DNA from: an uncultured bacterium
GTDB taxonomy: Bacteria > Babelota > Babeliae > Babelales > JABCYS01
Assembly (NCBI GenBank): GCA_963705705.1
Contig: CAVPKK010000009.1
Coordinates: 1,740-65,739, forward strand
Direction: 5' to 3'
Length of the DNA stretch: 64,000 bases
A program made the position numbers and the translations under genes. Below, piece by piece: positions 2,747 through 40,273 of this stretch; the first letter of the stretch is position 1, and every line of letters begins with the position of its first letter. A model generated the notes under the pieces. That model was not told the DNA's origin. It ran no database searches and was given only the letters and a program-made list of their open reading frames with translations.

Positions 2747-2751
2747 AATAA

Positions 2752-11364: not shown

Positions 11365-12192
11365 TTAACATTGCCCTGTCGAACGGTCGAAGCCGGTTGT
11401 TTCTACGAGCCAAAGCGATTTACCATTCTGGCAAAATTTAAGCACTATTAAGAAATAAAAAGCCAAATCTAGTGCTAATTCACCGTCATAATTTTTCATT
11501 TGGTATGGGCGCTGCGGGATAAAAAAGAAACAGCTGCTGGATGCACCCGAAATTAACTCAAGACGAGCCGGTCCTTTTTGCAAGAGCATTGTTTTGTCAT
11601 TATTAATAAACTCAACGAATGCCTCTTCATTCAAACGCCTGTCACCAGATTCATCAAAGATTTCAAAGCCGGCTTGTTTTATATTATGAAAGAACAAATT
11701 TGTTTGTTCCTTCATATTTTCATCACGCCAAACCCATGCAACATTGATTGACGGGCCTTCCACTGCGGGTGTGAGTGTGGGTTCTAGATCATTATCTTCT
11801 ATTCTGATTGTGCTTATTTTAAATACGTCCAATAATGGCAAAAGCTCATCAAAATACTTAGAAGCTTTCCCCCATCGATAGCTATAATAGGACTTTGATA
11901 ACTTAATCAGACCTGATTTCTCGTCAGGGCGAATGTACATGACTAAAGATATATTCTGAACTAGATTCCTTACAGTAAGCGGCTCTGAGTGAACTTGCGT
12001 AAGACCGAATTTATGACCCCTAATTATAAAATCCGCAGCTTCTTCCACTGAAAAATGTTGTTTTTCAATAGGTGAAGCGTAATAAATTTCGCAAGAAAAC
12101 ACATAGCCCAGATCAGCAATATGCTTAAGCAAGCGCAATATATTTAACTTGTTGAAACTCAAATCAAGGGTCAATGAAAAATTAACCTCCAT
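11365..12192 (-). CDS. hypothetical protein, coupled partner (immunity/antitoxin-like) of the upstream nuclease-like protein
   Basis: Its start overlaps the stop of 12182..14662 by 11 nt (ATGGAGGTTAA). It is a paralog of 26574..27350, sharing blocks 'NILRLLKHIADLGYVF'/'NIIKILEHGAKLGYSF', 'KQAGFEIFDESG'/'SAAGFKILDKPHG' and 'DLAFYF'/'DTAFYL'. Confidence 0.55.
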   Translation of the reverse strand: MEVNFSLTLDLSFNKLNILRLLKHIADLGYVFSCEIYYASPIEKQHFSVEEAADFIIRGHKFGLTQVHSEPLTVRNLVQNISLVMYIRPDEKSGLIKLSKSYYSYRWGKASKYFDELLPLLDVFKISTIRIEDNDLEPTLTPAVEGPSINVAWVWRDENMKEQTNLFFHNIKQAGFEIFDESGDRRLNEEAFVEFINNDKTMLLQKGPARLELISGASSSCFFFIPQRPYQMKNYDGELALDLAFYFLIVLKFCQNGKSLWLVETTGFDRSTGQC

Positions 12193-14662
12193 TAATTAAC
12201 CTCCATGCTAATTCATCTAAACTTAAAAATTGAATACCCTCTCCACGAGCCTCGTTTAGCAATGAAATAACTTCCTCTCTCAATGCAGCATCAGGGATAT
12301 GGTCCAAAGTCAATTTTTCCGGCGTTACAACAGCGAAAGATCGCCGCCCTTCAAATAAACGTTTTATTGATTCGCTCCGGGTAATGAATTGGTCTAGCTC
12401 GGTCTTTATTTTTTCAGGCGATAACATTTTCCAATCCCATGATTTACATTCAATCGCATAGCGTCTTCCATGCTTATCCGTAGCCAAAATATCAATTTCG
12501 AACTCTTGCTCACCAATTCTAGATATTCGATTCATTCCTTCAATTTCTCCCTCGGCCCGCTTTATAGTGCAGCCGACCTCTAACTCATAAATCTTGCCCT
12601 GGTTAGAATTCAACTTCCCATTCTTTCTAGTTTTTATATTATCCAAGGCGGCTGCAACTGTCTCATCTAATCCTGGAAATGGCCTTTCTGAAAGTTCGGT
12701 CTTTGCATTCTCTATCACTTCACGTGCAATTTCTTCTGTGCGATACCGTGCGCGAAAAACAAGTTCGCCGTTAGATGGCTCTTTCGGACCGGGTGGTTTT
12801 AAGCTAGTTCCCGGGCCGCTGGGCGATGGAGGTGGCGGCTTTTGTAACTGATATTCGCCGCATTCATTCAGATCCATTTCAAAAATATTATCTTCTAGGC
12901 ATGTATCTGGTATTGGATTAGTTTCAACCTCTGGCTTCGGCTCGACGTCATCAACATCAGATTCAGCTGATCCATTACTCGGCTTAGTCGCCGGCTCATC
13001 TGTTTCAGGTTTAATCCCCGGTTGAATTTCCGGACCAGCAGGTCCTGGATTTTCAGTAGGCGCTGGATCTTGTTTGGCAACATTAATATCACGCTGCTCA
13101 AGCCCTGTACGCTGCATTAAACCTTTATAGAAACCATTCTTATCAAGGAAAATTTCTTTAGTTGATCTGCCTGCGACTATTGGATGCTTATTAATAAAAT
13201 CATTGACCATCTCCTGCAATTTTATTTCTGGCAATGGTTTCTGATGCCGATCTGACGGACGTTGAGCCTCTACAAGTTCATACAAGAAATCATTTAGTTC
13301 AACGGCTGCAGCAGAATCATGTCGAATACCAAGTTTTTCCTCGAGAAGAAATTTTCTCTGGCCTCGAAGAATAACACTCATGGGCAATTTTATACTGTTA
13401 TCCGACCATTGATGACCTTCATACGGCGATTCTTCTATCCAGGGATCACGTGAGCACAGTGTCTCAGCAACTTCGTGCAATGCCGCGCGGAGACCATTAT
13501 GAGACCAATTCCATCCATCATTTTTATCAAAGCTGATTGCGCGAAGATCATTATTATCGTATGCATTGATAAGCATACGAACTGCTCCATTAAACTTATT
13601 ATTGCGAATAGCCTCTGAAGAAATCCTTCTTTTGGTATGAACGCAACCTTTTGGCCCTTTGCCATCACCTGTATAGCTGATTCCAAGCTGTTCTATTTTC
13701 TCTCGCCACCAATCCGCCCTGATTTCAGAATTCACCCGTGTAAGAAATTTATTTATATCGCGGGTTAATTTTGCAAGAATTGCCGATGCACATCCATTTG
13801 TTTTTATTAATTTTCCATTTTGGTGCCATCTAAAATCTTTAAGCGAGCCGTCCTCATTGAAGAAATGGGGAAGAAGCCACGCCTGAGTTTCAGCAAATTC
13901 TGCTGGCCATTCACTAACCGATTGCGGAATTAATAACTCAGCCAGCTCTAGTCGAGCGCGCAATGTATCTAACGAGGAAGCGCCCTTCCTATTAGGATTT
14001 GCCAGTTGCTGCATTACCGATCCAGGCTGTGCTGGCCCGGGCATAGCACCAAAAAGAGCCAGCGTGCTAAGATCAACAAAACGCATCATTTTAGCGATAT
14101 TGTATTGGCGAATTCTCGCTTCATATGCATCGGCCGGCGTTCCGATCTCAACCTTCGCTGATCCTCTTGGAGCTGGCATTGCGGGCTTTACTGCCTTGGT
14201 CTTGCCTGGTATAGCATGCTGTCGCCGTGAATTATTATTGGATACTGGAGCGAGGGTAGCCTCGGGTATTTGAGTAGGCGTCGGTTGCTTTGCAATTTCA
14301 CCTGAAGAATCGGCTACTGAGGAGGATGCCTCAGTGTATTTTTGCGCCCCTGGGACATCCTCGCGAACACCCTTCATGCGGAAATATTCTTCAGCAGATA
14401 CTGCCTCACAACGAATGCCGTTGACTGGTTTCGTTTGTTCAGCTATCCAATTCAGAGCAACAGCTAAACCAGGAACTGCAGCAACAAGCTTGTCGACTTG
14501 AACGGCGACCTGCGGATTATTTGCAAGGACTGTGCCTACCGTTGTTCCTACCTGATTTATAAGTTGGGCAACGGCAAACCCCAGAGATTTACGACAAGGT
14601 ACAAATATTAGCGCTAAAGCTACCAAACAAATCAGTAACCGTCGTCTGAGGCGAACTTGCAT
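12182..14662 (-). CDS. large membrane-anchored protein with a C-terminal PD-(D/E)xK (restriction-endonuclease-fold) nuclease-like domain
   Basis: N-terminal hydrophobic anchor 'LLICLVALALIFVPC', a long unique middle, a Pro/Glu-rich linker, then 'GKIYELEVG...EQEFEIDILATDKHGRRYAIECKSWDW' (E...D...ExK order). Confidence 0.6.
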   Translation of the reverse strand: MQVRLRRRLLICLVALALIFVPCRKSLGFAVAQLINQVGTTVGTVLANNPQVAVQVDKLVAAVPGLAVALNWIAEQTKPVNGIRCEAVSAEEYFRMKGVREDVPGAQKYTEASSSVADSSGEIAKQPTPTQIPEATLAPVSNNNSRRQHAIPGKTKAVKPAMPAPRGSAKVEIGTPADAYEARIRQYNIAKMMRFVDLSTLALFGAMPGPAQPGSVMQQLANPNRKGASSLDTLRARLELAELLIPQSVSEWPAEFAETQAWLLPHFFNEDGSLKDFRWHQNGKLIKTNGCASAILAKLTRDINKFLTRVNSEIRADWWREKIEQLGISYTGDGKGPKGCVHTKRRISSEAIRNNKFNGAVRMLINAYDNNDLRAISFDKNDGWNWSHNGLRAALHEVAETLCSRDPWIEESPYEGHQWSDNSIKLPMSVILRGQRKFLLEEKLGIRHDSAAAVELNDFLYELVEAQRPSDRHQKPLPEIKLQEMVNDFINKHPIVAGRSTKEIFLDKNGFYKGLMQRTGLEQRDINVAKQDPAPTENPGPAGPEIQPGIKPETDEPATKPSNGSAESDVDDVEPKPEVETNPIPDTCLEDNIFEMDLNECGEYQLQKPPPPSPSGPGTSLKPPGPKEPSNGELVFRARYRTEEIAREVIENAKTELSERPFPGLDETVAAALDNIKTRKNGKLNSNQGKIYELEVGCTIKRAEGEIEGMNRISRIGEQEFEIDILATDKHGRRYAIECKSWDWKMLSPEKIKTELDQFITRSESIKRLFEGRRSFAVVTPEKLTLDHIPDAALREEVISLLNEARGEGIQFLSLDELAWRLINGG

Positions 14663-14671
14663 GGTTTGCCT

Positions 14672-17600
14672 TTATTGTTTCTTTTCTTCTTCGCGTAGTC
14701 GTTCACGCTGTTTTTTTATGAATTCTTTTTGTTCCCTATCGGTTGCAACATCCTCGTCCATGGTTTCTATAACATTAAATGCACCAAACACCCATGCTGC
14801 TGGATTAGAGGATGATGCCGCCGAAGTAGCTGCAGATCGCAGATTCATCATGCGATCTTTTCGCTGTTGGTATTGCTGCTGTTCAAGTAGATCGAGTTGA
14901 AATTCTCGGTTTTTTATGGCCTCTCGTTCCTGAGAAGATTTACCCCATTTTATGCGATAGTCCACTAGTTTCCTAATAATCAGCACAGCATTTTGCAGAT
15001 CTTGCAATGTTACTTTTAGTCCTGTTTTTACTTGTTCCAAATATGTCTGTGAAACGGGAGTCCCGGCCAATACTGCATAACTTCTATCTATTGCAATATC
15101 CTCGGCTGTTACAACTAAATTTTCAAGGTCACGGCAGGCGAAGCCCCGTGTATCCTTCAAAACTTGATCGAGGGTTTCCGCCCTATGTTTCTCTTCCACA
15201 GCGCTATCAAAAATAGTGTGTTTGGTTTGAGCAAGATAATGCTCAAGAATCATCCGCCTGTTATATAGATCTGGTACATCCATCATAATATGAGCATCGA
15301 ATCGAGCATGAACTGCTTCATCCAGATCTTCCCGTCTATTGGTCGCTGCAATATAAAATATTAAATTGCAGTATTCTTTGCGCAATGAATTAAATTGACT
15401 AAGCAAAGCGTCATTCATTCTTGTTTCTTCTTTGTGAGAGTCGTTATTCCGTTTACCGCCAAGTCCTTCAAACTCATCAAAGAAAATAACAACTTTTTGC
15501 CCAGTAACATTCACAAATGTTTTAATGCGCTCGAAGAATTCATTTATTTTTCTTGGGCCCTCTCCAGCCCATTTATCTGCAAAGGCACCGCCATGACACA
15601 TGATAAATTTTGCGCCAGCTTGATGCGCGAAGATTTCCGCAATTGTTGTTTTCCCCGTGCCGGGAGGTCCGTATAATAAAATGCCCTTTTTCCGTTTGTT
15701 TCCAAGATCCCTAATTCCTGTTCCGAATTCGCGGCATAGACGTGGGATATCGGATGCTATGTCGCCTACAAATATTTTTGCTTCTGGAGCCATGATGGTA
15801 ATACCGTTATCTCGTAATTTATTTATTTCGCGATCATCTCGTTCACGGCACCAATCAGAAACAACCGTGGAACAGTGACGAAACACATCTAAGCGAGGCT
15901 CGCGCATAAGACCATCACGCACTTCATGGATCATATCTCTCATAGCACGACAATTAAAATTTTTGGTTGCTTTTACCAACATCATTATCTGATCTTCACG
16001 CAAATTAAAGCCAGTGGTTTCATGCTTCAGGATAGATTGTCTCGCTTGATCATTAGGAAATGTAATTTCAACCTGCTTAACAAATTTTCCTTGCTGACCT
16101 AACTCAAACTTAGCCGACAGACTATTGCAGATACCTATAACCGTTATAAATTTATTTTTGGTGTTGTGCGTTTCTGCTAAAATAAATTGTGCAGCTTGGG
16201 CGCGCAGTGGATCAAAATTATGTTGATCATTTTGGATCAGCTTCTCAATCCAATCAATTATGAGAACCGAAGGCCGATTGATCGATCGCAATGCAGAAAA
16301 TATTTTTTCAACTTGCTCCGGCCGCGTAATATGGCGAGCGTCAATGAAGACCATTTCGGCACCGACTTCTTGAGCAACACAGCGCGCAATATGCCCTTTT
16401 TCATCTGAATCACCGTAGAATATTGCATGGGCCCAGAGGCGATCTGCCTGTCTAAGTCTATTTAGATAATCCGTAATTTGGCCAGGTATGACAGGCGCCG
16501 CTCTACCTACTTGTTGATTTTCACCATTTGGATACACACCAAATGCTTCATATAAATTTAATGATGGATCGGGATTAATGAGCTGAGGAATCATCTGCTT
16601 GAGCCGTTCGCGATATTGAGCATGAACATCATTAAAACCTTGCTCTACATGTGTCTGCTCCAATCTTACTGCGCGGCCGCGTGCTTCATGAGCTTTTTCA
16701 GTCACAATCGCCTTGAGCTCGGCTATATTAAAACCTTCCGCTCTTTGCGCTAGATGTTCGATGAGTTGATCAAGGTTTTGAATATTGTGCTGTTGTTGTC
16801 GCAAATAATAAGTAAGAATTGCCCGACGCATTTCCAAACTTGGCAAATCCAAACGAATCTGAGCACCAAACCGCCCTGCGCGCATCAAGTTTTTATCAAG
16901 TTCGTCCTCATGATTCGTTGCACCAATCACAATTACTGATCTGCCAAATGGGGTTCTTGCAAGTTCCGATAGCTCAACCTTTAATTGGTTAATTGTATTA
17001 TCACCTTGATGATGGCCGCCGCGGCGCGCAAGCGAATCAAATTCATCGAAAAAGATAACAATACGTTCCTCTGGATTTTGTTCCAAATAGGTTTTGACTT
17101 GCCTAAAAATTGAACTTATACGTTCGGCGCCGCTTCCGATGAGGGCTCCGTTAACCATGCTTGCAGATACGCATACAAATTTTGCGAAAGCAGAACCTGC
17201 AAATGCCTCAGCCAAGAACGATTTGCCTGTACCACCAGGACCATATAACAACATGCCGGGCGACACTTCATGAGCTCGCCCATCTTGATTTCCTTGTTGC
17301 ATAAAACGATCCAATGTTGCCCGCGCTCTTTCGGGCACTTCCCCAGCAAAATCATCCAATGTGCACAGTGGGGCTTGGAACTTAATAGAATTTTCACGTT
17401 CTTGCTCTCTGAAAACGCGCTCAAGATCTTCATTTCTTCTTTGGCGTAGTTCATTTAATTGTTGGATCAGGCGGTGATGTTCAAAATTTGCTCGTGGCAT
17501 ATGGTCAATAGCACTGCATACATCCTTGGCGCTTAAGCAATGGGATCGAGTGATAAGTAGCTGTAATATTGCATCATCAACATTAACTTGCTGTTTCTCG

Positions 17601-18316
17601 AGATATGAACGAATAATTGCTGCACGAGCCTCAGCATTTGGCAATTCAAATTTTATATTTGCAGATTCAAGTTCGCCATTTTCTAGGAATGATCGCGAAA
17701 TAAGGCTAAGGTCTCGGATTGTACCTATTACAAAAATATTGCGATTAAGCGGATCGACAAGCTGTTCCATGAATGTACCAGCGGTATTCAAATATTCAGG
17801 ATGTTCGCCTTCTGGCTTTCGACCGAGCAGCATTTCAATTTGATCAACAATTAATAGCGTGGGCTTGTTTGATGCACGCAATTCTTTGAAAAGTTCTCTA
17901 ATTTTGTCAGCGCCTACACCAATATGCTTATCATTAAATGCAGCACCTATAATGCGCTTTTTATGGAAGCCAAGTTCGTCGGCAATAATAGAAGCAGAAA
18001 AACTTTTGCCCGTGCCAGAAGGTCCGTGAAAAAATACCAACCTTGGCGTATTGGCATGTCTCTGGTCCAAATGACGATATTGAGCTGCAAGATCATGGGC
18101 CTGCTGTGGCAAACCATGAACTTCGTCTAATCTAACTTTTTTGGCAACTGACTCATCGTCAAATTGTTCTTTTTCAAGGGTTCCGGTCAACCGTTGGAAG
18201 GAATAATAGAGAAGTGCTCTATTTCGCTCATTGTAGGATGTCCATTGAGTGAAGAGATCATTGGCTTGGACAAAGCCAGGGATTAAGAGAAGCAGTAGAA
18301 GCAGTAAGCGACACAT
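14672..18316 (-). CDS. signal-peptide protein with four tandem AAA+ ATPase modules
   Basis: 'MCRLLLLLLLLIPGFVQA' signal peptide. Walker A 'GPSGTGKS' (~18000-18040), 'GPGGTGKS' (~17220-17255), degenerate 'GDSDEKGH', and 'GPPGTGKT' (~15650-15690). Walker B 'LLIVDQIE', 'VIFFDEFDSL', 'VLIIDWIE', 'VIFFDEFEGL'. Sensor/Arg-finger 'GATN...MRAGRF' and 'AATN...HARFD'. Confidence 0.8.
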   Translation of the reverse strand: MCRLLLLLLLLIPGFVQANDLFTQWTSYNERNRALLYYSFQRLTGTLEKEQFDDESVAKKVRLDEVHGLPQQAHDLAAQYRHLDQRHANTPRLVFFHGPSGTGKSFSASIIADELGFHKKRIIGAAFNDKHIGVGADKIRELFKELRASNKPTLLIVDQIEMLLGRKPEGEHPEYLNTAGTFMEQLVDPLNRNIFVIGTIRDLSLISRSFLENGELESANIKFELPNAEARAAIIRSYLEKQQVNVDDAILQLLITRSHCLSAKDVCSAIDHMPRANFEHHRLIQQLNELRQRRNEDLERVFREQERENSIKFQAPLCTLDDFAGEVPERARATLDRFMQQGNQDGRAHEVSPGMLLYGPGGTGKSFLAEAFAGSAFAKFVCVSASMVNGALIGSGAERISSIFRQVKTYLEQNPEERIVIFFDEFDSLARRGGHHQGDNTINQLKVELSELARTPFGRSVIVIGATNHEDELDKNLMRAGRFGAQIRLDLPSLEMRRAILTYYLRQQQHNIQNLDQLIEHLAQRAEGFNIAELKAIVTEKAHEARGRAVRLEQTHVEQGFNDVHAQYRERLKQMIPQLINPDPSLNLYEAFGVYPNGENQQVGRAAPVIPGQITDYLNRLRQADRLWAHAIFYGDSDEKGHIARCVAQEVGAEMVFIDARHITRPEQVEKIFSALRSINRPSVLIIDWIEKLIQNDQHNFDPLRAQAAQFILAETHNTKNKFITVIGICNSLSAKFELGQQGKFVKQVEITFPNDQARQSILKHETTGFNLREDQIMMLVKATKNFNCRAMRDMIHEVRDGLMREPRLDVFRHCSTVVSDWCRERDDREINKLRDNGITIMAPEAKIFVGDIASDIPRLCREFGTGIRDLGNKRKKGILLYGPPGTGKTTIAEIFAHQAGAKFIMCHGGAFADKWAGEGPRKINEFFERIKTFVNVTGQKVVIFFDEFEGLGGKRNNDSHKEETRMNDALLSQFNSLRKEYCNLIFYIAATNRREDLDEAVHARFDAHIMMDVPDLYNRRMILEHYLAQTKHTIFDSAVEEKHRAETLDQVLKDTRGFACRDLENLVVTAEDIAIDRSYAVLAGTPVSQTYLEQVKTGLKVTLQDLQNAVLIIRKLVDYRIKWGKSSQEREAIKNREFQLDLLEQQQYQQRKDRMMNLRSAATSAASSSNPAAWVFGAFNVIETMDEDVATDREQKEFIKKQRERLREEEKKQ

Positions 18317-21935: not shown

Positions 21936-22784
21936 TTAGCAAGGGAAGTTTGGACCGCAACATGCTACTGGTTCTCCACCAATGATTGATAGCATACAGA
22001 TGATTTGCTTCAATAGGGTATTGTTCTCGTTAACAACATTAAAGACGAGGTCAACATCGCCATCGATATCGCCAAGTTGGCAAGTTACTTCTCTAAGCAC
22101 TGTGAATGTGCCGTTGAACTCTTCAACCAATTCAACCTTAATATCTCTTAGAGCTGTGAACACGCCTGATAGATCACATGCTGAACCTTCACAAGGACAA
22201 GCTAATAGATTCGCAAGCAGAGTGAATGTACCATTGAAACCAGCATCGATATCTGCATCAATGTCGATTACACGGCTTATAATGAAATCAAGATCAGATT
22301 CAATTTCTTCAAGTACTGTGAATGTACCGTTGAAACCAGCAACTAACTCAACTTTAATATCTACAAGGGCAGTAAATACACCTGAAAGATCGCAACCTGC
22401 AGCTTCGCAAGGGCAAGCTAATAGATTAGCAAGTAGAGTGAATGTACCATTGAAACCAGCATCGATATCTTCATCAAGATCGAGTACGCGGCTTATGATG
22501 AAATCAACGTCTTCATCGATTTCGTTCACTACGGTTAGGATTTCGCTAAGTACCGTGAATGTACCATTGAAATCAGCGATGAGTTCGCTGCAGCATTCCA
22601 TGCCTGGGCGGATACAGCTAGCTCTGTCATCTACGTCAGCCCGAACAACCGGCGCTGGCATAGACTTAGCTACTGTTCTACCCATAGGGGCAGCTGATTT
22701 GGTTAGTAGCGGGGCAGGAACAACCATGCCGAGGGCTACTAAAAATGATAGTTTGTGTAGGCTCGAATGAAGGTTTGACTTCAT
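21936..22784 (-). CDS. secreted Cys-containing 'FNGTF'-repeat protein (small paralog of 35717..40213)
   Basis: Signal peptide, five 'FNGTFT(V/L)L' units, and a twice-repeated block '...DIDAGFNGTFTLLANLLACPCE..CDLSGVFTAL.DIKVELV..FNGTFTVL'. It shares 'CDLSGVFT.LVDIK.ELV' with the giant protein. Confidence 0.7.
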   Translation of the reverse strand: MKSNLHSSLHKLSFLVALGMVVPAPLLTKSAAPMGRTVAKSMPAPVVRADVDDRASCIRPGMECCSELIADFNGTFTVLSEILTVVNEIDEDVDFIISRVLDLDEDIDAGFNGTFTLLANLLACPCEAAGCDLSGVFTALVDIKVELVAGFNGTFTVLEEIESDLDFIISRVIDIDADIDAGFNGTFTLLANLLACPCEGSACDLSGVFTALRDIKVELVEEFNGTFTVLREVTCQLGDIDGDVDLVFNVVNENNTLLKQIICMLSIIGGEPVACCGPNFPC

Positions 22785-23201: not shown

Positions 23202-23906
23202 ATGATCCCTACAACAAAAGCCACAATATTATTCCTTACATTCTCTTTTTTCTCTGCACTCGCAGTTCCATTCACGCCCACTGATAAAGAGACATGGAGC
23301 GAGCATGAACGTGAGCTCAGCTCAATTATCCAGGATCAGCATTTAGAGCCTACCAATCGACTCCTCAACAAGGCACTTGCCTATGCCAAGGAGGCGATGG
23401 CCAATGATGGTTTGGCGCCGGAAATCCGCCGCTTTGCCTTTGATTTAAGTATCATCGCCACCAATGCAACTGCATATAAAAAATATAGAGATACAATTAA
23501 AGCATTCGAACAATTTCCCGAGCTAACTCTCCCGGCAGTAGCTTCCTTGCAGCAAAAAATATTCCGCGGTGATGTGATCATGATCGCCCGCGCCATTATC
23601 TGCAAAATGCTCAATGTGCCCTTATCCCTCGAGCGCCTAACCGGCCCCGGCCTGTGGGTAATTGAGCAAGAAAATAACATGTTTAAGGATCATCATTTTG
23701 CACAACGCCAGCCGATCATCGATGCGCTTACCGATACCGAATGCGCCGAGATTATTAAACTTGCCAGCCAAGCGCATGAACTTAATAAACGCGGCAACAT
23801 TCAAAACGCCATGGTTCAGCTCATGCAGATATTCAACCACCTCTTCAACATGCCACCAACTGCTATGGAAGTATCCAAGCAATATCGATCATTATCGCGG
23901 GTGTAG
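23202..23906 (+). CDS. secreted hypothetical protein, paralog of 27383..28117
   Basis: Signal peptide 'ILFLTFSFFSALA'. Shared blocks 'FAFDLSIIATNA'/'FAYDLSVLAKNK' and 'GPGLWVIEQE'/'GPGLWMIEFE'. Confidence 0.55.
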   Translation: MIPTTKATILFLTFSFFSALAVPFTPTDKETWSEHERELSSIIQDQHLEPTNRLLNKALAYAKEAMANDGLAPEIRRFAFDLSIIATNATAYKKYRDTIKAFEQFPELTLPAVASLQQKIFRGDVIMIARAIICKMLNVPLSLERLTGPGLWVIEQENNMFKDHHFAQRQPIIDALTDTECAEIIKLASQAHELNKRGNIQNAMVQLMQIFNHLFNMPPTAMEVSKQYRSLSRV

Positions 23907-23975
23907 GTTATTGCAACATTTAGCTGATAACAGTAATGTATTGGCCCATGTAGCAACTTGCAACGTGGAAGCTCA

Positions 23976-26573
23976 ATGCAAAACTCTTCAAAATTCGCAC
24001 GCATCAGAAAAAAATTAACTCCATTTTTCCTTGCCATTCTGATTGGCGTCCAAACACTTCTTTCCGCTATCGCTGCCCCCGCAGCCGCTATTTTTGGATT
24101 AGGCACAGCCATTGGCTTGGGTACCGTGGCCACGGTTGCCGCTCCGGTTGCACTCACCGTTGGCGTAGCCTACTTTTTTTATACGTTGCAAGGTTCAGGT
24201 TCCAAGACTTTTGCGACCCCCTATGCAGCAAGCAAAGCTGCCCCAACAAACCATACGGCTCAAGCCGCGGAAGCTGCACGAAATATTCATCAGTGGTTTG
24301 CCGGCGGCATGAATCCGGCCACGTCCCCGTTATCGCCAACCGAAAAATCAATCTTAGACAAAGTTTTAGATGCAAATGCTGGAAAAAAAGTAGATATTCA
24401 CTCAGCATTCCAAACTCAGATCAAAAAGGAAGTTAATGAGCGAATAAAAAATTTAAAAAGTGCCACGACTCGTAACTGCTTTCGTGACCAGCTTGAATTT
24501 CTTCAAACATTAATTGAAACCCTCGATTTGGCAGCAGCTCAGCCAGATAAAGCAATATTTACTGTATTCCATCATCTCGTTGGAGCCGATGGCAACTTTA
24601 TTCCCAATAAGAGCAAATGCCTTGATTCAATTCTTTATTTTGCATTGCAGTATTGCCCACTAAAGCCCGGCTTCTCTTTAGATGGTTTATTCCTAAATTC
24701 AGGTCTTTCGTATTCCAAAGATTGCGTTGATAATAAAAATACCAATTTAGGCGGGCAAAAGATTTTTGCTCCATGTGAACCCTGCATACAGAAATTGGCA
24801 GAGGCTATGCTGGTGCCTAGGGAGCAAATCGAACCGCTTGTCACTGACTTACGAAAAATTATCTATGCCCATACTGCTCAAGATCCTCGACAGCTGGAGC
24901 TTTCATCAAATGACCTTTTTCTCGCCAATCCATTTTGCACACACATTTTTGATATGTTCCTGCGAATGGGCTATTGCGGAAAAGACCCATTGCTCAAGCA
25001 AAAGGATCCCGATTTATCGCAAGTCCTCAAACGAGGGCAACAGCGAAAAGAAATTGATGTGCAATTAGGGCTTACTTCATCCCAATCCGCGGATCTGGCT
25101 ACATTAAATTATCGGCTCATATCAAAAGCAGGCGATCCAAAAGCGCAGGCCGATATATTACTTGCATATGTAAGCGGCTCAAAAGCAAAACCTGTAGACG
25201 GAATTGCGCCTCGCGAAATTTATTTTAATAAAGATGGCCGTTGTAAATTGGTTGAATTGGCTGCCATGGAAAACTTTTTACTTGAGGTATATCAAGGCAG
25301 ATCTAACAAACTAAACGCCCTTGCGTATTCATTTGCTAAAGATGCGTTAGTAAATGAAGAATTGTGCCAGCCTCTTATGACTGCAGCCCGCCAATTATCA
25401 AAATTCGCTTCTTCTGATTCAGTTCAGGACTTCCCAGAAACTGCCGCAGCCATTGGCAGCATCCAGGAATTTTCTCTGCCCGCTTCAGCCAACGATCAGC
25501 AAAAATCAATATATGAAGATACGGTGGCAATCATTAATGATATCGTCAATCTTTGTTGCATTAACCCGGGCACTGATTTACCACCAATTGGCGGTTCCAG
25601 CCCGATTGGAGAAACTGCGGATCCAAAAGGAACTTGCGGCTCCAGCAAGCTTGATCAACATCTAGCAAATTTGATCAAAAACCTTGCCTGCGGCCACGAT
25701 CTTAATAAAACTGGAAACATTGATTCGGCGTTAGACATTGTGAGAACCTGCGGCAAAGGATTAGGCGCCATCGAAGAGACGCCTAAATGGCGCTGCAATT
25801 GGAGCAAAGAACGAGGTAGCCGAATTGCCCCACCGAAGATAACCTGCAACGACGCCCAACAAATTGGGGAGCGGCTCAAGACCTCAGACCTGACTCTAGC
25901 CGCTATTGCTCGGGAGACGTTAGAACTAAAACCTGGCATCGGGCGCCTCAGTGAAAAATCATTTAATATTCCCGATCGACGGTATACGATCCCTGAAGCA
26001 GAAAAAATTATCGAGGATGCTAAGAATGTCTTTGGAAATAAAGGAATACCCGGTTTTGAAGAATTAATTCGAAACGCAGAGGCCCAACTCAAAAAAGCGA
26101 AAGAAGATATTGCCAAGGGTAATTCAGGGACGAACTTGGGTCATATTACCGAATTGGAAACGGCCCTATTCCTCAACACAAAAGGAATTAACATCGCGGC
26201 AATTAATTTGAAAATAAAAGAAGGCGGGAAATTGATAGCCGAATTTGACATGATTATTGAAATCGAAGGGAAATTATTTGCTGTAGAATGTAAATCTTTT
26301 GATTGGACGGTGCATTCCGAAGAAGGCTTACGAAAGGTCGTGACGCAAATTGAAAGACATATTAAAGCGATTAAGGATTATAAAGGTCTCTTAGACTCCA
26401 CTCTAAAATTGGCAGGCAGGACTCTCGGTTATCTTGTAATTACGCCAAATGCATTTCCCTCAGCTGAGCGGATTGCAACTCTTCCAACAAAAGAACAACT
26501 TTGGGCGATAATTTCTCATGCTAAAGAAAATTGTTATGAAATTTTGGGTCTTAGCAATTGGGGAGAAAAATAA
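23976..26573 (+). CDS. large membrane-anchored protein with a C-terminal PD-(D/E)xK nuclease-like domain (copy 2)
   Basis: A ~55-aa Gly/Ala/Val-rich hydrophobic region 'FFLAILIGVQTLLSAIAAPAAAIFGLGTAIGLGTVATVAAPVALTVGVAYFFY'. C-terminus 'GHITELETALFL...IAEFDMIIEIEGKLFAVECKSFDW'. I preferred the ATG at 23976; the longest ORF starts at 23958. Confidence 0.6.
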   Translation: MQNSSKFARIRKKLTPFFLAILIGVQTLLSAIAAPAAAIFGLGTAIGLGTVATVAAPVALTVGVAYFFYTLQGSGSKTFATPYAASKAAPTNHTAQAAEAARNIHQWFAGGMNPATSPLSPTEKSILDKVLDANAGKKVDIHSAFQTQIKKEVNERIKNLKSATTRNCFRDQLEFLQTLIETLDLAAAQPDKAIFTVFHHLVGADGNFIPNKSKCLDSILYFALQYCPLKPGFSLDGLFLNSGLSYSKDCVDNKNTNLGGQKIFAPCEPCIQKLAEAMLVPREQIEPLVTDLRKIIYAHTAQDPRQLELSSNDLFLANPFCTHIFDMFLRMGYCGKDPLLKQKDPDLSQVLKRGQQRKEIDVQLGLTSSQSADLATLNYRLISKAGDPKAQADILLAYVSGSKAKPVDGIAPREIYFNKDGRCKLVELAAMENFLLEVYQGRSNKLNALAYSFAKDALVNEELCQPLMTAARQLSKFASSDSVQDFPETAAAIGSIQEFSLPASANDQQKSIYEDTVAIINDIVNLCCINPGTDLPPIGGSSPIGETADPKGTCGSSKLDQHLANLIKNLACGHDLNKTGNIDSALDIVRTCGKGLGAIEETPKWRCNWSKERGSRIAPPKITCNDAQQIGERLKTSDLTLAAIARETLELKPGIGRLSEKSFNIPDRRYTIPEAEKIIEDAKNVFGNKGIPGFEELIRNAEAQLKKAKEDIAKGNSGTNLGHITELETALFLNTKGINIAAINLKIKEGGKLIAEFDMIIEIEGKLFAVECKSFDWTVHSEEGLRKVVTQIERHIKAIKDYKGLLDSTLKLAGRTLGYLVITPNAFPSAERIATLPTKEQLWAIISHAKENCYEILGLSNWGEK

Positions 26574-27350
26574 ATGGATTTTTATTATTTCTTTTTAACA
26601 GATTGCCGCTACACAGATAAAAATATCATTAAGATATTGGAACATGGCGCAAAATTAGGCTACTCATTTCGAATCCCTACTTATATTAGCGGTAATTCGG
26701 GTAACCCAGAATCTTTGGATATTGAAACGGCTACTAAATTTTTAATAAAAGAACACCCACTGTCGCGTTGGTATAGCGGGATTGAAGCCCACAAAAACAA
26801 TGGAAATACCTTAGAATTTGATGCTATCGATAAAAATGATTTTCTCCAAATAGATGGCGGCGGATATTTTGAGACCTACTCAGATATAGTTGGCTACATG
26901 CCGAATATGATTGAAATTCTACGACCCTTCAAAATTAACAACTTCCAAATGCAGGAAGAATATTTCATTGACACAAAAATTCCCACACCTGGATATCACG
27001 GCCCAATCATTTATTGCAATCGCTTTGGCATTTGGCCAGTATTAAAACAAAATATTTCTGCCGCCGGCTTTAAAATTTTAGATAAACCCCATGGCTCTGA
27101 GATTGATGTGGCTCTCTCCGATAAAGGAAAAGAGTACCGCTATGAATTAACGGCATTCCTACAAAAAGACGAAATCATTATCAAAGCCCAGATAAGCGGA
27201 TCTGATTTATGCTTAATGCCGTTCCCACCCTATGTTCAACATAAATATGAAAGCGGAGCTGATATTGATACCGCCTTTTATCTAGATTTTCTATTTAAAC
27301 TAGCCAAGGGGGCCGAGGCGCTTGATTTCATAGAAGCAAAGAATTTCTAA
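26574..27350 (+). CDS. hypothetical protein, coupled partner (immunity/antitoxin-like), paralog of 11365..12192
   Basis: Its ATG immediately follows the TAA of 23976..26573. Paralogy blocks are listed under 11365..12192. Confidence 0.55.
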   Translation: MDFYYFFLTDCRYTDKNIIKILEHGAKLGYSFRIPTYISGNSGNPESLDIETATKFLIKEHPLSRWYSGIEAHKNNGNTLEFDAIDKNDFLQIDGGGYFETYSDIVGYMPNMIEILRPFKINNFQMQEEYFIDTKIPTPGYHGPIIYCNRFGIWPVLKQNISAAGFKILDKPHGSEIDVALSDKGKEYRYELTAFLQKDEIIIKAQISGSDLCLMPFPPYVQHKYESGADIDTAFYLDFLFKLAKGAEALDFIEAKNF

Positions 27351-27382
27351 CAACAAACAACAACACAAACAAAGAGGCATCT

Positions 27383-28117
27383 ATGTTCAATACATCTACC
27401 ATCAAACTAATTTTTCTAATACTCGCATCAGTACAATTTAGTAATGCATCCAATCTCCCTGGAAATACGGATGCACAGACTCAGTATATTTTTGAATTAT
27501 GCTCGATTGTGGGAGATCAAATGCAAGATCAGAACAATCTATTGCTAGCAAAGGCAGCAGGTTACGCAGCTGAATCAACCAACGAAGAAAATCTTGATAT
27601 ATTTCTTTGCCACTTTGCATATGATCTGAGTGTGTTGGCAAAAAACAAAGAAGTTTGTAAACGGTATCCGAATACTGCAAAAGCATATGAGCAACTTACA
27701 ACACTTTCACGGCCTGCTACTGTATCAATTGTTCAGGGCATGCTTCAAAAAGATATCATAACATTGTTACGCGTGATTATTTGTGAAACTCTCACAATTC
27801 CTGTATCAGCAGATCGCATATTCGGTCCAGGCCTTTGGATGATTGAATTTGAAAAGTCTGTAAATATGCAAGAACATAGTTATAGAAATGAACCCATTAC
27901 TCTTCCCAAATTAACGGATAATGATTATGCAGGAATTATTAAGACTGCTAGCAAGGCATATGAGTTAAGCAAGTCTGGCGATGCCACAGCTGCAATGGCT
28001 GAATTAAAGGAACCATATATCAGATTATTCAATGCAGAGCCAAGCTCATTAAAGCTGGCCCACATCTTTGAGGAAGCAGGAAATCCTTCATATGTAATGC
28101 AGCCACGGGGCAAATAA
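27383..28117 (+). CDS. secreted hypothetical protein, paralog of 23202..23906
   Basis: Signal peptide 'IKLIFLILASVQFSNA'. It shares blocks with 23202..23906. Confidence 0.55.
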   Translation: MFNTSTIKLIFLILASVQFSNASNLPGNTDAQTQYIFELCSIVGDQMQDQNNLLLAKAAGYAAESTNEENLDIFLCHFAYDLSVLAKNKEVCKRYPNTAKAYEQLTTLSRPATVSIVQGMLQKDIITLLRVIICETLTIPVSADRIFGPGLWMIEFEKSVNMQEHSYRNEPITLPKLTDNDYAGIIKTASKAYELSKSGDATAAMAELKEPYIRLFNAEPSSLKLAHIFEEAGNPSYVMQPRGK

Positions 28118-28335
28118 TCGTTCTCCCCACTTTTCCTATGCTTCTAATCGAATGAGGAAAATTTTTCTGTATGGGCGTATATCTTGTTTTGAGCGATTTG
28201 AGTTGGATAAAAGGGAGATTGGTCATTTGAGTCCTGGCCCGACCGTCCCGTATGTATTTGCGCAGCAAAAACCAACGAAGTAAATCTGCATTCAAATGCA
28301 AGTGAACGCAGTACAGTTTAGACCCATAGGATCAA

Positions 28336-28442: not shown

Positions 28443-30793
28443 TTAAACCAAATCAGCTTCATCCGGCGGTGGAGGTGGCGGGGTTTCGCTACGCCTACTT
28501 GGTGGCGTATCATTTATGCCAGGTTGGCTTTTAGAGGCCTCTGAATCTCGCGGAGGCGTGTTCCGGTCTGTAGTTGCCGCAGATGGGCGTCTTTCCGGTG
28601 ATTGTGGCGCCTCGAGGCTAAAATTCATGAATTTTGGCGTTCTAGGCGATGCAGCAATGGGTGACAGGAATTGCGATTCAGGATCTCCAATTGATAAGCG
28701 AATCCTTGATTGTGGTGATCGGGAACCCAATTCTATACTATCTTGAATCGATTGCTGTCTTGGAGTAGGCGCATCCAAATAAAGGCTATTGAAATTAGCC
28801 GATTCGCCCAGGCTTATCCGCGCAGGATTAATATTCATGTCGGATTGACAGCTATTAAGAATCTCGTCGTATACCTTTTTGGGAATGTTAAAAACTATAG
28901 CATCGGTGACTACTTGCAGATCTTCCCGTATCTTTTCATTTAAGGTAATACGCTGTTTGATAAAGATGTTTTTAAGTTGGCGTTTTGTTAAGCCAACTAA
29001 GTTCTTCTGCTTTAATGTAGTTGCAAAGGCATCTGCGATGCGATCTGTTTGATCATTATCGCATTCACCGATTGAAAACCTCACACGTTTCTCACTAAAG
29101 TGCGCAGCAAGAGATTTAAGTAGCTCATCAACCATTTCACAGAAATCTCGGCCTTCGCCCGCGGAGAAATCCCAGCAGTTTAGATCCAGTTTCTTGCGCA
29201 GAAGATCATGAAACTTCTTAGTTTCACGGTACTTGCTTCCTTTATGCCGTATCCATGCATAACGTGCTGCACCGGTTGCCACGGCACTACCAGCGCCATA
29301 AAGAATCTTGGTTATTACATCAGAAAAAAGGCTTCCGCCTGAACTCATATTAATGGGATCAGGTGGGTTGGAAGAAGTAGATCCCGTGCTAGAAGCTGTA
29401 GAATTATTTCCGTTGCTGCCGGTAGATCCGGTTAGTGTTGGCGCAGGTGGAGTCTCCAGTGACTGCAGGTATGCCGCAGTAAGCGCAATACCATAAATTT
29501 GATAATGGCCATTCTGGTTACCTTGCCATGCAACGAAGACGTCGCCATTGGGTAAGGCTGTGGCAACGGCATCTTGCTGATTGCCACCCTGAATCTGATT
29601 AATCATAAACGGCCCATAAATAATATTGCCGTTGCTATCTATTATCGTTCCATAGATATCATAATTAGTGCTGGTTGAAGACGCTTGGGCTGAAAAAACA
29701 ATCAACGCATTGTTACCGTTATTAAATATAGCCACATTATTGCCGTGGACTGCCGTAAATGCTTGATATAGATTCCCCTGTAAATTAAGTGAGCCCTTTA
29801 ATAAGCTGCCATTTGCGCCATTAAACAGGGCACCTGTCATACCAGATAAAGTGCTTGGCTTCACTGACCATACTGAGAGAACCTTATCATTGGCAAAGGC
29901 CCCTAATCCAATGCCGCCAGATATACCATATTGCCCACCGCCATCATTATATTGGGAGGTAAAACGCTGACCAAGCGTTTTATTAAATGAAGATAATCTT
30001 AAATAACCATTATGGTCAGCAAAAAAGATGTTCCCATTAGGGTCTGAGGCTGCAATAAAATAGGCCCGTCCACTAATACTATCCAGTTTGTGCGATACGG
30101 TAGTTTGAGGCTGCCCCCTTGATTAATTTCTTGACCAAAAAATTGGTTAGATGAGCCAATATTTTCAAAAGACAAAAGGACATTACCATTTACTAATGGC
30201 ACTGCATTAATCGAAGGATTGTTATAACTACCTTGACCCCCAGCAGCAATCTGCAAATCCGATGATTCGCCAATTCCATTTCTATTAAAAAGGCGAGCTT
30301 TAAAATTATTATTGCTATCTACCCATGCCACAGCTGCAGAGCTATCATTAAATGAAGAGATGGTGGGCCAAAGCTGGGAAGTTAAATTAGATACCGGGAT
30401 TTCACTCGTTAATAATGATCCATCTTCATTTATTGCACGAAATGACGAGATACTGCCCTGTTGCCAAACCGCGTATAGATGCCCATCTGGCCATCCGACA
30501 ATGCCTGGGTTGGTCAGATCACTAGCGCTAGGATCATTGAGCATAAATTCGGTGCCAACCTGAGATTCAATTTTTGGAACATGGGTTGCCAAAAGGCCTA
30601 AAATCAAGGTTTTTTTTGAGGTATTGGCAAACCATCTGACGCTATTGCGCCAGGCATTGCATACCTTTTTTATTGTGGAAGGATCTGAATGATCTTGCGA
30701 TGGGAAGTTACCCGCTTGAAGAGCAGGCATTAAACAAAAGCCGATAGCCAAAAATAAGGTTAATTTGCGTGTCATGATGGTCGCCAAATGCAT
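28443..30793 (-). CDS. single-pass membrane protein (signal peptide, repeat-rich ectodomain, S/T linker, TM, cytoplasmic domain with a poly-Pro tail), split by a frameshift in a G5 run (ORFs 29999..30793 and 28443..29864)
   Basis: Both pieces carry the same type of strand-like repeats ('HLYAVWQQG', 'SAAVAWVDSNNNFKARLF', 'AYFIAASDPNGNIFFAD', 'GDVFVAWQGNQNGHYQIYG'). The downstream frame is open from just after the G5 run. A TM segment 'ILYGAGSAVATGAARYAWI' is present, and the protein ends 'ETPPPPPPDEADLV'. Confidence 0.6.
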
Positions 30794-30936: not shown

Positions 30937-31836
30937 TTACGCCGCTGGGCGTATAGAAATATTATCAATCACAGGATCAATTACTAACCCTGCCGCCTGC
31001 TGGGTCCCATTTACAACTGGAGTATATCCAAGGACTAAGAGGAAAGAGAGATTATAATTATTATCAGCTTCGAGGGGAACAAATCCAAGTGCTGCGATAC
31101 CATTATTTCCGAATGCAATATTGCCCCGGAGTTGGCTATCGGTATTGGCAACCGAGAAGCCCCAGTTACCATTTTCTTCCGCACTTGAATTCTTAATAGT
31201 TACGACACTAGTACCCTCGACGTTGAACCCTACTCCACCATTGCTATTTGCCACGCAATTACTCACGAAAGAAGAGTAGCTGCTCATGAAATCAAATCCG
31301 ACGTTCGCGTTAAAGCTACATTCACAATTGGTTATCCATCCTTTATCGCCGCTGTTAAATATGATCCCATTCCCCGATGTAAGGACCTGACATCCATCAA
31401 TCCGTACAGCTGTGTTATTAGATTGCACATTGATCCCGATCCCCGGGGGGTTAAGGAAGTTGACTAGATTTAGGCCACTTAACAAGATGTTATTGATTGC
31501 TATAGGTTCTGTTACAATGCCGGTTAACGCCCCAGTAAGGCCGCCACCATCAAGCACCCCATTCTTTATAACAGTATTGCTACTGGTCACAACAACTAAG
31601 AAAGTTAACGCGGATCCCGCAGTAACGGTCTTTCCATTCAAATCAAATATCACATTAGTGCCAGTAATGTTAAGAGCTCCGGTTACTGTCGCATCATCAG
31701 TCAAAATATACTTGCCCGGCTGAGAAAAGGTTGCGCCCGAGGCAATTTCTTGCGGGCTCACGTAAAAAAGAGGTGTGGCCGTGGCGCTGCCGATACCTAG
31801 CAGGCAGCCCAGTGATAGTAGTTTTTTTAAATTCAT
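30937..31836 (-). CDS. secreted right-handed parallel beta-helix (PbH1-repeat) protein, paralog 1
   Basis: Signal peptide 'MNLKKLLSLGCLLGIGSATA'. 'NITGTNVIFDLNGKTVTA', then ~22-aa beta-helix coils ('CVANSNGGVGFNVEGTSVVTIKNSSAEENGNWGFSV'). It ends 'IDNISIRPAA'. Confidence 0.7.
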   Translation of the reverse strand: MNLKKLLSLGCLLGIGSATATPLFYVSPQEIASGATFSQPGKYILTDDATVTGALNITGTNVIFDLNGKTVTAGSALTFLVVVTSSNTVIKNGVLDGGGLTGALTGIVTEPIAINNILLSGLNLVNFLNPPGIGINVQSNNTAVRIDGCQVLTSGNGIIFNSGDKGWITNCECSFNANVGFDFMSSYSSFVSNCVANSNGGVGFNVEGTSVVTIKNSSAEENGNWGFSVANTDSQLRGNIAFGNNGIAALGFVPLEADNNYNLSFLLVLGYTPVVNGTQQAAGLVIDPVIDNISIRPAA

Positions 31837-31868
31837 TTTTAATCCTCTCTAATCATTACAATACATAA

Positions 31869-32759
31869 TTATGTTATAGAAATATTATTGAAGCCGAGAT
31901 TAAGTGTCTCATTTTCCGGAATCACTGATGTATTAGATACAGCGATAAAGCCAATTGATCCAGAATAATTTTTATCTGCACCAGTACCACCATTCCCATA
32001 AGCAATATTGCCACGAAACTGAGAAGTAGTATTAGCGGCGGATAACTGGAAGCCCCAAGAGGAATTGTCTTCCGCACTGCAGTTTTTAACAGATACGATG
32101 CTGTTGAATAAGATATTAAACCCTATTGCGATATTTCCATTTGCCACGCAATTGCTCACAAAACAGCGCCCAGTACTGCCTCCTGCCCTTCCAAAATCAA
32201 ACCCGTCGGCCATATTGAAGCTACATTCGGTATTGGTTACCCAGCAACTGTCGGTATTGCCAACGACTAAACCCGAAAATGAATTAATGACCTCGCATGC
32301 ATCAATCCGCACGCCTGTGCTACCACTACCACTTACAAAGATCCCAATGCTTTTGTTGTTAGTCGAGACGTTAACAACAGTCACTCCACTTACCGAAGCA
32401 TTTATAATACCGCCAGCTGTTTCGACCCCAAACATTGCATATGATGTAGGATTACCGCCATCAAGCAGGCCATTCTTGACAGCAGTGTTATTACCATTCA
32501 AAAGAACTAACGCGGTGGCAGGTGTGAAAGTTGAATCTGCAGTAAGTGTCTTTCCATTAAGATCAAAAATTACATCCGCAGAAAGAGAAATACTGCTCGT
32601 TACTATTGCATCATCAGTCAAAACATAGGTGCCTGGGTTCGAGAATGTATAGCCGCCCGAAATCTGACTTGGATTTACATAGAATACCTTGGGGGAAGTA
32701 GCCAGGGCGATGGTGCTCGCACTCAAGGCAAAAAATTGAACTATTCTTTTAATTTGCAT
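31869..32759 (-). CDS. secreted parallel beta-helix protein, paralog 2
   Basis: Start moved to ATG 32759 ('MQIKRIVQFFALSASTIALA', AGGAG upstream). Same coil pattern. It ends 'GFNNISIT'. Confidence 0.7.
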   Translation of the reverse strand: MQIKRIVQFFALSASTIALATSPKVFYVNPSQISGGYTFSNPGTYVLTDDAIVTSSISLSADVIFDLNGKTLTADSTFTPATALVLLNGNNTAVKNGLLDGGNPTSYAMFGVETAGGIINASVSGVTVVNVSTNNKSIGIFVSGSGSTGVRIDACEVINSFSGLVVGNTDSCWVTNTECSFNMADGFDFGRAGGSTGRCFVSNCVANGNIAIGFNILFNSIVSVKNCSAEDNSSWGFQLSAANTTSQFRGNIAYGNGGTGADKNYSGSIGFIAVSNTSVIPENETLNLGFNNISIT

Positions 32760-32842
32760 TATCACTCCTAGGATATTTAATTTCTCAGTTAGACCTAACT
32801 TAGTTTGTGTTCGTCCACGCTTTGGCCCGAATCGTATAATCA

Positions 32843-33691: not shown

Positions 33692-33738
33692 ATTACTCCT
33701 TGGATAGTTAAATATCTGGATGCAGGTTATTGGATCGC

Positions 33739-34779: not shown

Positions 34780-34794
34780 TATCACTCCTTATAG

Positions 34795-40213: not shown

Positions 40214-40273
40214 TTCCACTGTCGCTCCTCGCTTAAAAGAAACCATTGCCAAGCATTCACCCAATGCCAACTA

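Follow-up and report, generated by a model that had tools for sequence, protein, structure and literature searches.

What does a tightly joined pair of genes, encoding a large nuclease-like protein and a small acidic partner, do in a bacterium of the Dependentiae (TM6) clade? Dependentiae are widespread, almost uncultured, host-dependent parasites of protists. We addressed this question in a stretch of 64,000 nucleotides (nt) of contig CAVPKK010000009.1 (assembly GCA_963705705.1, an uncultured bacterium of the GTDB lineage Babelota), hereafter the window, where positions 23202-28117 carry four genes on the plus strand: an upstream flanker, sec234 (23202..23906; an open reading frame (ORF) of 234 amino acids (aa)), the large protein nuc871 (23958..26573; an 871-aa ORF from TTG), the partner par258 (26574..27350; a 258-aa ORF abutting the upstream stop), and a downstream flanker, sec244 (27383..28117; a 244-aa ORF). 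The answer that we favour, and hold with about equal belief and doubt, is that nuc871 and par258 would form a lineage-restricted two-gene module of this clade, a polymorphic-toxin-like exported nuclease with its cognate inhibitor.

An earlier sequence-only reading had described the four plus-strand genes and the abutting partner ATG, and the ORF calls reproduced its coordinates exactly. The likelier start of nuc871 is the ATG at 23976, with GGAAG 5 nt upstream, which gives a protein of 865 aa; the database protein P0001 (865 aa) is identical to nuc871 and begins at this ATG. At the nuc871/par258 junction, GGGGAGAAAAATAA is followed directly by ATG, so that the partner start abuts the TAA, and a Shine-Dalgarno-like GGGGAG sits within the 3' end of the nuc871 gene, ahead of par258. 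The intergenic gaps are 51-69 nt before nuc871 and 32 nt after par258. A 417-nt intergenic region upstream of the set and a convergent gene downstream make a single transcription unit for 23202-28117 plausible, if unproven. A scan for promoters and terminators placed a single terminator-like hairpin (28286-28311) past the last gene; promoter-like sites in the locus were fewer than in shuffled sequence and uninformative.

The same window holds a second pair about 9 kb away, the 826-aa large protein nuc826 (12182..14662, minus strand) and the 275-aa partner par275 (11365..12192, minus strand), both recognised by homology to nuc871 and par258. The C-terminal ~190 aa of nuc826 and nuc871 are 27% identical (E=4e-13), and par275 aligns with par258 over its full length (22% identity, E=4e-14), far beyond chance, which upholds the paralogy that had been proposed for the two pairs. 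The architecture of nuc826 is like that of nuc871, with a Pro/Glu-rich linker replacing an insert described below. The middle domains are ~20% identical when relatives are added to the alignment and share DPR, C-x-DP, RG, and LG motifs; the only trace of paralogy at the DNA level is a 29-nt, 79% match at the active-site codons for ECKS(F/W)DW. The start of par275 overlaps the end of nuc826 by 11 nt. This junction (12181-12208, minus strand) contains a direct duplication, ATGGAGGTTAAT-TA-ATGGAGGTTAAT, in which the first copy provides a GGAGG ribosome-binding site and lengthens nuc826 by a few codons, and the second provides the par275 ATG and hence the overlap.

The nuclease-like character of the large protein lies in its C-terminal end. 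When aa 654-871 of nuc871 were searched in isolation, the Pfam family NERD (PF08378) matched at 24.5 bits (E=4.2e-5; gathering cut-off 22.1); the match is borderline, as the whole protein reached 21.9 bits, just under the same cut-off. NERD was matched by three of the five family members, and other members matched weakly to Mrr_cat, Mrr_cat_2, Tox-REase-3 (one member only, E=0.0034), UPF0102/YraN, DUF4143, DUF234, and DUF1853, which are mostly families of the restriction-endonuclease (REase) fold. The five domains compared are 27-44% identical overall and share the invariant residues G721, G728, E732, L733, E734, G743, D764, E777, C778, K779, and W783 (nuc871 numbering), among which E732/E734, D764, and E777-C778-K779 are the putative catalytic or metal-binding residues in an E..D..ExK pattern. 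A five-sequence profile matched Card1 and AF1548 in the PDB, with the D and the ECK falling on their catalytic D and ExK. In an AlphaFold2 (AF2) model built from a two-sequence alignment, the order of elements (helix 75-88, strands 92-102, 105-116, and 119-126, helix 135-152) fits the fold at low confidence (predicted local distance difference test (pLDDT), 49.7); a Foldseek search of this model against the PDB gave nothing at E<=0.001, and AF1548 and Can2 appeared among the non-significant matches only. Together, the isolated-domain score and the invariant E..D..ExK pattern agree with the earlier view of a nuclease-like protein. On this sequence evidence we assign the C-terminal ~200 aa of both large proteins to a PD-(D/E)xK, NERD-like nuclease domain (in nuc871 aa 673-871, 25974..26570, plus strand, delimited from the Pfam match and the invariant columns), which is presumably catalytically active.

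Some NERD proteins carry transmembrane helices and have no assigned role according to the Pfam family description. The nuc871 domain could likewise be inert or housekeeping, in membrane-associated DNA binding or processing, and the pair part of an ordinary lineage-specific membrane complex without a function in conflict; the nuclease domains being near-neutral, not basic, would suit such a role. However, the metal-binding and catalytic positions are all invariant despite an overall identity of 27%, and the history of the genes, given below, speaks against it as well. As a separate observation, a Chthonomonas metagenome-assembled genome (MAG) contains a ~150-aa PD-(D/E)xK ORF (L083, 8187-8639) with the same VECKSFTW active-site strand, ~1.4 kb from an N6-adenine methyltransferase-like gene, a context that resembles restriction-modification.

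How widespread is the pair? An exhaustive phmmer search with the concatenated nuc871 and par258 sequences against 1.84 billion representative proteins returned 12 matches, four of them the window's own genes. The other eight were one full-length ortholog of nuc871 (P0003; 760 aa, 41% identity), three partners, three fragments, and one 327-aa protein that shares the nuclease domain alone. In word-indexed searches of 5.8 billion proteins, the full 871-aa query found only nuc871 itself and a three-sequence profile of the nuclease domain found nothing; a scan of JGI metagenomes with the partner profile detected no relatives. The known family therefore comprises seven loci from about four or five related organisms, namely the two in the window, L002, L082, L084, L085/L086, and L087. 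In all seven the partner lies immediately downstream of the nuclease-like end, and the starts abut or overlap.

Two of these loci come from the MAG 'clean339' (DAIDHG01). On its contig 11, L082 shows the end of an AAA+ gene, P0003, the partner P0005, and a convergent gene like o473 (one of two orphan genes downstream of the nuc871 cassette), with no flankers; on contig 60, L002 has a truncated large gene, a partner, and methionyl-tRNA synthetase (MetRS), in the position of the first copy, nuc826/par275. L084, in MAG DAIDIB01, consists of a nuclease end, a partner, a flanker fragment, and a gene like o264, the second orphan; all three cassette genes are decayed. Over L084 600-1975 the last ~80 nuclease codons are left, the partner is truncated, and the flanker homolog has no start and carries a stop and a frameshift, a state that reflects either pseudogenisation or poor assembly. 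L085 and L086 are ~1-kb contigs with a partner gene, preceded in L086 by a nuclease end. L087, on an ENA contig, has a MATE gene, a frameshifted large gene, a partner, and an o473-like gene, in the position of the second copy, nuc871/par258. Its large gene (2045-4079) is split into at least four frames, via frameshifts or long-read errors, and beyond ~5.9 kb the contig switches to coding sequence very high in guanine plus cytosine, which suggests a chimeric assembly.

The orphan genes themselves, o473 (28443-29864, minus strand) and o264 (29999-30793, minus strand), are syntenic in three related loci (L082 3718-5865; L084 2152-3045; L087 5316-5909). In L082 their place is taken by one 715-aa protein with a Pro-rich tail, apparently a fusion or a replacement.

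The partner belongs to no described family. Scans found no Pfam, PDB, NCBIfam, or PADLOC family for it, a PDB profile search gave nothing below E=0.4, and none of the seven partners scanned against Pfam matched an Imm family or any other recurrent family. Its AF2 model, again from a two-sequence alignment, was poor (pLDDT 38.1), and divergence across the seven-sequence partner alignment was too great to derive patterns. par258 has no hydrophobic segment and an isoelectric point (pI) of 5.1, and partners are generally acidic (pI 4.8-5.4). It is 44-46% identical to partners of other loci. We propose par258 as the cognate inhibitor, or immunity protein, of nuc871, an inhibitory role that we infer from its position, its acidity, and its behaviour in recombination.

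This behaviour is clearest in clean339, where the DNA of the two paralogs matches at 92.4% identity along 238 nt (L002:1-238 = L082:1664-1901; 91% protein identity). The similarity ends abruptly just past the motif YFDKSGRCKIPW..AAIKEDAQ, and beyond this junction no DNA similarity is detectable, the nuclease regions being <30% and the partners 24% identical. Over the last ~100 aa of the middle domain, nuc871, P0003, L002, and L087 are 44-50% identical. The partners fall into four classes: class A (par258, P0005, P0006, P0004, and P0013, 42-48% identical to each other), class B (par275), class C (L002), and class D (L087), and the classes are only 21-26% identical to one another. The sharp clean339 breakpoint and the incongruence between middle domains and partners indicate that the C-terminal domain and the partner have been exchanged together, as one unit swapped at the junction after the middle domain. 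The orthologs nuc871 and P0003 have diverged to a similar extent in every part (39-47% identity), and their partners are 46% identical. Domain-wise identities were used here in place of dN/dS because synonymous sites are saturated at 22-46% amino-acid identity.

With seven loci, a partner always immediately downstream, and modular recombination, the suggestion of an evolving cassette family in place of a one-off gene holds. Duplication, extreme divergence, recombination, the decay in L084, and 12 matches in 1.84e9 proteins are also signatures of conflict genes, and we regard the inert or housekeeping role introduced above as very unlikely.

Where the nuclease acts depends on the N-terminus of the large protein. 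A hydropathy scan of nuc871 (Kyte-Doolittle 19-aa windows >=1.6) delimited one continuous Gly/Ala/Val-rich hydrophobic stretch of 58 aa (aa 20-77; 24015..24188, plus strand), preceded by five positive charges (K12, R15, R17, K18, and K19). At this length it is too long for a signal peptide alone, in line with the previous claim that it is more than a cleaved one. A charged lead-in and a hydrophobic N-terminus recur in all four full-length large proteins; in the three other than nuc871, a signal-like core is followed by a second hydrophobic or amphipathic segment, and in nuc826 a signal-peptide-like start precedes an amphipathic segment that is not clearly membrane-spanning.

Next comes the middle domain (aa 81-445; 24198..25292, plus strand), defined by alignment with P0003, P0007, P0008, and nuc826. 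Cys makes up 2.5% of it, and its C-terminal end is a conserved Y-F-[ND]-K-x-G-x-C-K junction motif. When all members were scanned no Pfam family recurred, and a PDB profile search gave nothing below E=0.4; NCBIfam and PADLOC likewise have no family that matches the middle domain or the flankers. Between the middle and nuclease domains, nuc871 contains a flanker-like domain that the sequence-only reading had missed (aa 449-592; 25302..25733, plus strand). In BLASTP it matched sec234 at 27% identity over 154 aa (E=3e-8, 40.8 bits; 12.9 +/- 4.5 bits with a maximum of 23.9 in 200 shuffles) and sec244 at E=1e-4. We interpret it, from these alignments, as a captured copy of the flanking secreted-protein family. 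In nuc826 and the L002 homolog a Pro/Glu-rich linker alone stands at this position, which places the insert at the junction before the nuclease domain; P0003 retains only the C-terminal half of the insert. The linkers of the large proteins are rich in Pro, Glu, and Thr, and the Cys content is 4.1% in the insert and 0.9% in the nuclease domain. Since free members of the insert family carry only a signal-like N-terminus, the insert region of nuc871 probably works outside the cytoplasm.

The hydrophobic stretch of nuc871 is, on the other hand, long enough for two helices, and with five positive charges before it a two-helix hairpin (N-in/C-in) could anchor a nuclease that faces the cytoplasm and is checked there by the partner, as a toxin-antitoxin (TA) pair, an abortive-infection or defence system, or a locus-stabilising addiction module. 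A partner without a hydrophobic segment would be cytoplasmic, and tight translational coupling and co-variation suit TA pairs equally. NERD and related PD-(D/E)xK domains are known in phage-defence contexts; in PADLOC the nuclease-like proteins matched the generic PD_DExK and CARF_PDDEXK models only, at E=0.0025-0.0064, and the adjacent AAA+ protein of the first copy matches models of the IetA/IteA anti-phage ATPases, well below the NCBIfam cut-off. Yet no defence-system family of PADLOC-DB 2.0 was significantly matched by the nuclease-like protein or the partner, the AAA+ neighbour has a signal-like N-terminus itself, and a multi-domain protein of ~800 aa with Pro-rich linkers is atypical of TA toxins. 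The embedded domain also occurs in small proteins whose sole targeting feature is a signal-like N-terminus, and this points to an extracytoplasmic location, and the second segment of nuc826 is not clearly a membrane helix. We therefore consider a cytoplasm-facing nuclease rather unlikely; a stable second membrane helix would add weight to it, and topology is the main uncertainty of the toxin-immunity reading.

The flankers are true paralogs, as had been noted: along 226 aa they are 36% identical (E=4e-49). Each starts with a short run of charged residues, followed by a hydrophobic core of 11-15 residues and an ALA/SNA-type end; these N-termini are signal-peptide-like as judged by eye (hydrophobic aa 6-27 in sec234). 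sec234 has no Pfam, NCBIfam, or PDB match, a PDB profile search with the flanker family gave nothing below E=0.4, and the flanker profile found no relatives in GTDB species genomes. The four genes are not conserved together: among the four other loci whose surroundings can be seen far enough, three (L082, L002, and L087) have no flankers, and the fourth, L084, has a decayed homolog (1580-1924) in the same position as sec244. The flankers are therefore best seen as a local accessory expansion, and the core unit appears to be the nuclease-like gene and its partner.

In two loci an AAA+ ATPase gene, which the earlier reading had missed, takes the place of a flanker upstream of the pair. The 1214-aa protein aaa1214 (14672..18316, minus strand; Pfam AAA 4.5e-88, four stretches) has four AAA+ modules and a signal-like N-terminus, and lies 9 nt upstream of nuc826 on the same strand; the C-terminal end of its homolog (L082 32-385) is directly upstream of the nuc871 ortholog. 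The AAA+ protein may thus be functionally linked to the cassette. A 330-aa protein with a single AAA+ module, aaa330 (10177-11169, plus strand), also has a signal-peptide-like N-terminus. Such N-termini are odd for AAA+ ATPases, except if the proteins work in the cytosol of the host or the N-terminus is a membrane anchor.

Signal-like starts in sec234, sec244, aaa1214, aaa330, o264, and o282 suit a third interpretation, in which the locus is a host-directed effector operon, the partner serves as a chaperone dedicated to export or as a second effector delivered alongside the first, and the flankers and AAA+ proteins are further effectors. Dependentiae have been described as effector-rich (PMC6561590), and immunity genes are usually missing for the effectors of intracellular bacteria (PMC3482391). 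However, co-delivery of a partner without an export signal is unlikely, and the joint recombination and co-variation of the C-terminal domain and the partner suggest binding to that domain, not to the conserved N-terminal export region. Nor is it a known pattern that each Sec substrate has its own chaperone gene, and we judge such an operon unlikely.

Under the toxin-immunity reading, the charged, hydrophobic N-terminus would target the large protein to the Sec machinery, and its parts would follow in the order of Sec signal, Cys-containing middle domain, variable linker, and nuclease domain with an intact E..D..ExK metal-binding site. The acidic partner, which has no export signal, would be made by translational coupling to the end of the large gene, and would most likely bind the nuclease domain and keep it silent in the producing cell up to the export of the large protein, by the same logic as barstar, the Im proteins of colicin DNases, and MafI. 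Candidate targets are nucleic acids of the protist host or of co-infecting competitors; those of the host would fit a parasite that scavenges nucleotides. Delivery of REase-fold toxins with a signal peptide only is a described class (PMC3482391).

Several observations weigh against this reading. Export of the large protein is something we infer from its N-terminus, and should the second hydrophobic segment truly span the membrane, in a hairpin or as a stop-transfer sequence once the signal is cleaved, most of the protein, with its nuclease domain, would lie on the cytoplasmic side. The C-terminal domains form a single family and all partners are mutually homologous, unlike the assortment of unrelated toxin domains typical of polymorphic toxins; a tblastn search of the window found no extra copies and no orphan C-terminal/immunity cassettes. 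When the window paralogs are compared, conservation is highest in the nuclease domain (28% vs 20% for the middle domain), and the near-neutral charge of the nuclease domains, the poor AF2 models, and the lack of a significant Foldseek match count on the same side, as does the origin of several related loci in low-quality or decayed assemblies (L084 and L087). Intracellular bacteria usually have no immunity genes, with exceptions such as Odyssella (PMC3482391).

A more far-reaching version is improbable in our view. It supposes that the Gly/Ala-rich hairpin of a Sec-exported protein inserts into a non-self membrane, of a host vacuole or organelle or of a co-infecting rival, and exposes or delivers the NERD-type nuclease there, and that a new family of ~260-aa immunity proteins protects the producer. 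Insertion into a foreign membrane had been raised in the sequence-only reading and is speculative. The modules would be shuffled among strains for kin discrimination in a shared protist host, with the captured sec domain and the free sec proteins as receptor-binding or decoy parts, and the whole would be the first toxin-immunity-type system of Dependentiae.

The genomic context is that of a Dependentiae chromosome. MetRS (8064-10064) is 77% identical to that of clean339 and 54-57% identical to those of MAGs labelled Candidatus Dependentiae, TM6, or Babeliales, and the window also encodes TopA, GltX, an ABC transporter, a BamA-like POTRA protein (52048-54705, minus strand), and a prepilin (type IV leader) peptidase (61177-61923, plus strand). 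The last two make an outer membrane and an export route of the pilus or type II secretion system (T2SS) kind plausible, and this machinery could serve signal-peptide-bearing proteins. For the sequenced Dependentiae isolate Chromulinavorax destructans, signal peptides are reported on ~44% of proteins, among them putative nucleases that would be secreted (PMC6561590). Neither Rfam nor tRNA scans matched anything in the window, and a repeat scan around both copies found no mobile-element boundaries. The chromosomal housekeeping context (TopA, MetRS, GltX, and the BamA-like protein) and the conserved synteny with relatives led us to reject a prophage or plasmid origin.

Other genes in the neighbourhood deserve mention. 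The gene at 21936-22784 (minus strand) encodes a Cys-rich protein (282 aa, 5% Cys) that starts with a signal-like sequence and is made up of internal repeats of 216/120 nt; homologs of the repeats occur many times in a Babeliales MAG (L016, ~40% identity); the plus-strand 262-aa ORF that overlaps it is probably spurious. Downstream of the orphan genes, five tandem paralogous right-handed beta-helix proteins of 282-348 aa (30937-35697, minus strand) are followed by a 1517-aa protein (35717-40270, minus strand) that has a beta-helix C-terminus and matches the NleE cysteine-methyltransferase effector family at 34.4 bits (cut-off 27). A heparinase II/III-like protein beside MetRS (6151-8067, minus strand) is unexpected in a reduced, host-dependent bacterium.

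The very large sets of signal-peptide-bearing orphan proteins in Dependentiae are functionally blank, and this locus gives a concrete hypothesis for four orphan families: the middle domain, the NERD-like C-terminal domain, the partner, and the flankers. If the partner is an immunity protein, it represents a new immunity family, and an intracellular-type lineage that keeps a toxin-immunity pair would be an exception in comparative surveys. With a cytoplasm-facing nuclease, the pair would instead be a TA or defence module of a new, membrane-anchored kind. In both cases, the capture of a flanker domain and the abrupt recombination breakpoint show how cassettes of this type diversify.

This very rare family is real and hints at a mechanism, although its general kind is already known. 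In its probable working the pair resembles a polymorphic toxin-immunity system, of which we do not count it a member: it has no named Tox or Imm family, one C-terminal type, and no orphan cassettes, and it comes from an obligate intracellular-type lineage, in which immunity genes are usually absent. NERD (PF08378) is the best match of the C-terminal domain and has the same E..D..ExK pattern and, as far as the low-confidence model shows, the same helix-strand-strand-strand order, with transmembrane helices in some members; typical NERD proteins, however, are single-domain and have no dedicated partner, whereas here a ~650-aa N-terminal part and a partner unrelated to anything described are added. 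Chlamydial Inc proteins have a bilobed hydrophobic segment of 40-60 aa near the N-terminus, which aa 20-77 of nuc871 may resemble. Inc proteins are substrates of type III secretion systems (T3SS), and no T3SS is evident within the window or known from descriptions of Dependentiae; nuc826 shows the segment less strongly and in amphipathic form, and the sequences are not similar to Inc.

Barnase-barstar, colicin E DNase-Im, and NucA-NuiA follow the logic proposed here for the pair, of an exported nuclease and an acidic cytoplasmic inhibitor, and in the colicin case the inhibitor gene adjoins the nuclease gene and diverges in step with it. They differ in that there is no homology, the partner is ~260 aa in place of ~85-135 aa, and the nuclease is of the PD-(D/E)xK instead of the barnase or HNH type. 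Among amoeba- or host-associated bacteria, signal peptides are found on APD1/APD2 of Amoebophilus asiaticus and on the Tox-REase-8/-9 effectors that Wolbachia and Parachlamydia encode (PMC3482391). In these proteins a shared N-terminal region is joined to variable C-terminal effector domains, which include REase-fold nucleases presumed to target the host. They have no immunity genes, whereas the present family has a partner in every locus; it has no ankyrin array, and a lipobox is not evident.

Closest in architecture are the Tox-REase-1 to -10 polymorphic toxins of the signal-peptide-only 'T2SS-type' class, such as Neisseria MafB/MafI (Zhang et al. 2012, PMC3482391), although in the proteins studied here no trafficking domain, be it MafB-N/DUF1020, RHS, filamentous haemagglutinin, or another, was matched in Pfam. 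As in that class, a putative N-terminal signal and a conserved N-terminal or central region come before an REase-fold domain, which forms the C-terminus and has a D-(E/Q)xK site. The next gene downstream is small and lacks an export signal, and this gene and the C-terminal domain are exchanged jointly at a sharp junction. The small signal-bearing protein upstream of nuc871 recalls mafA.

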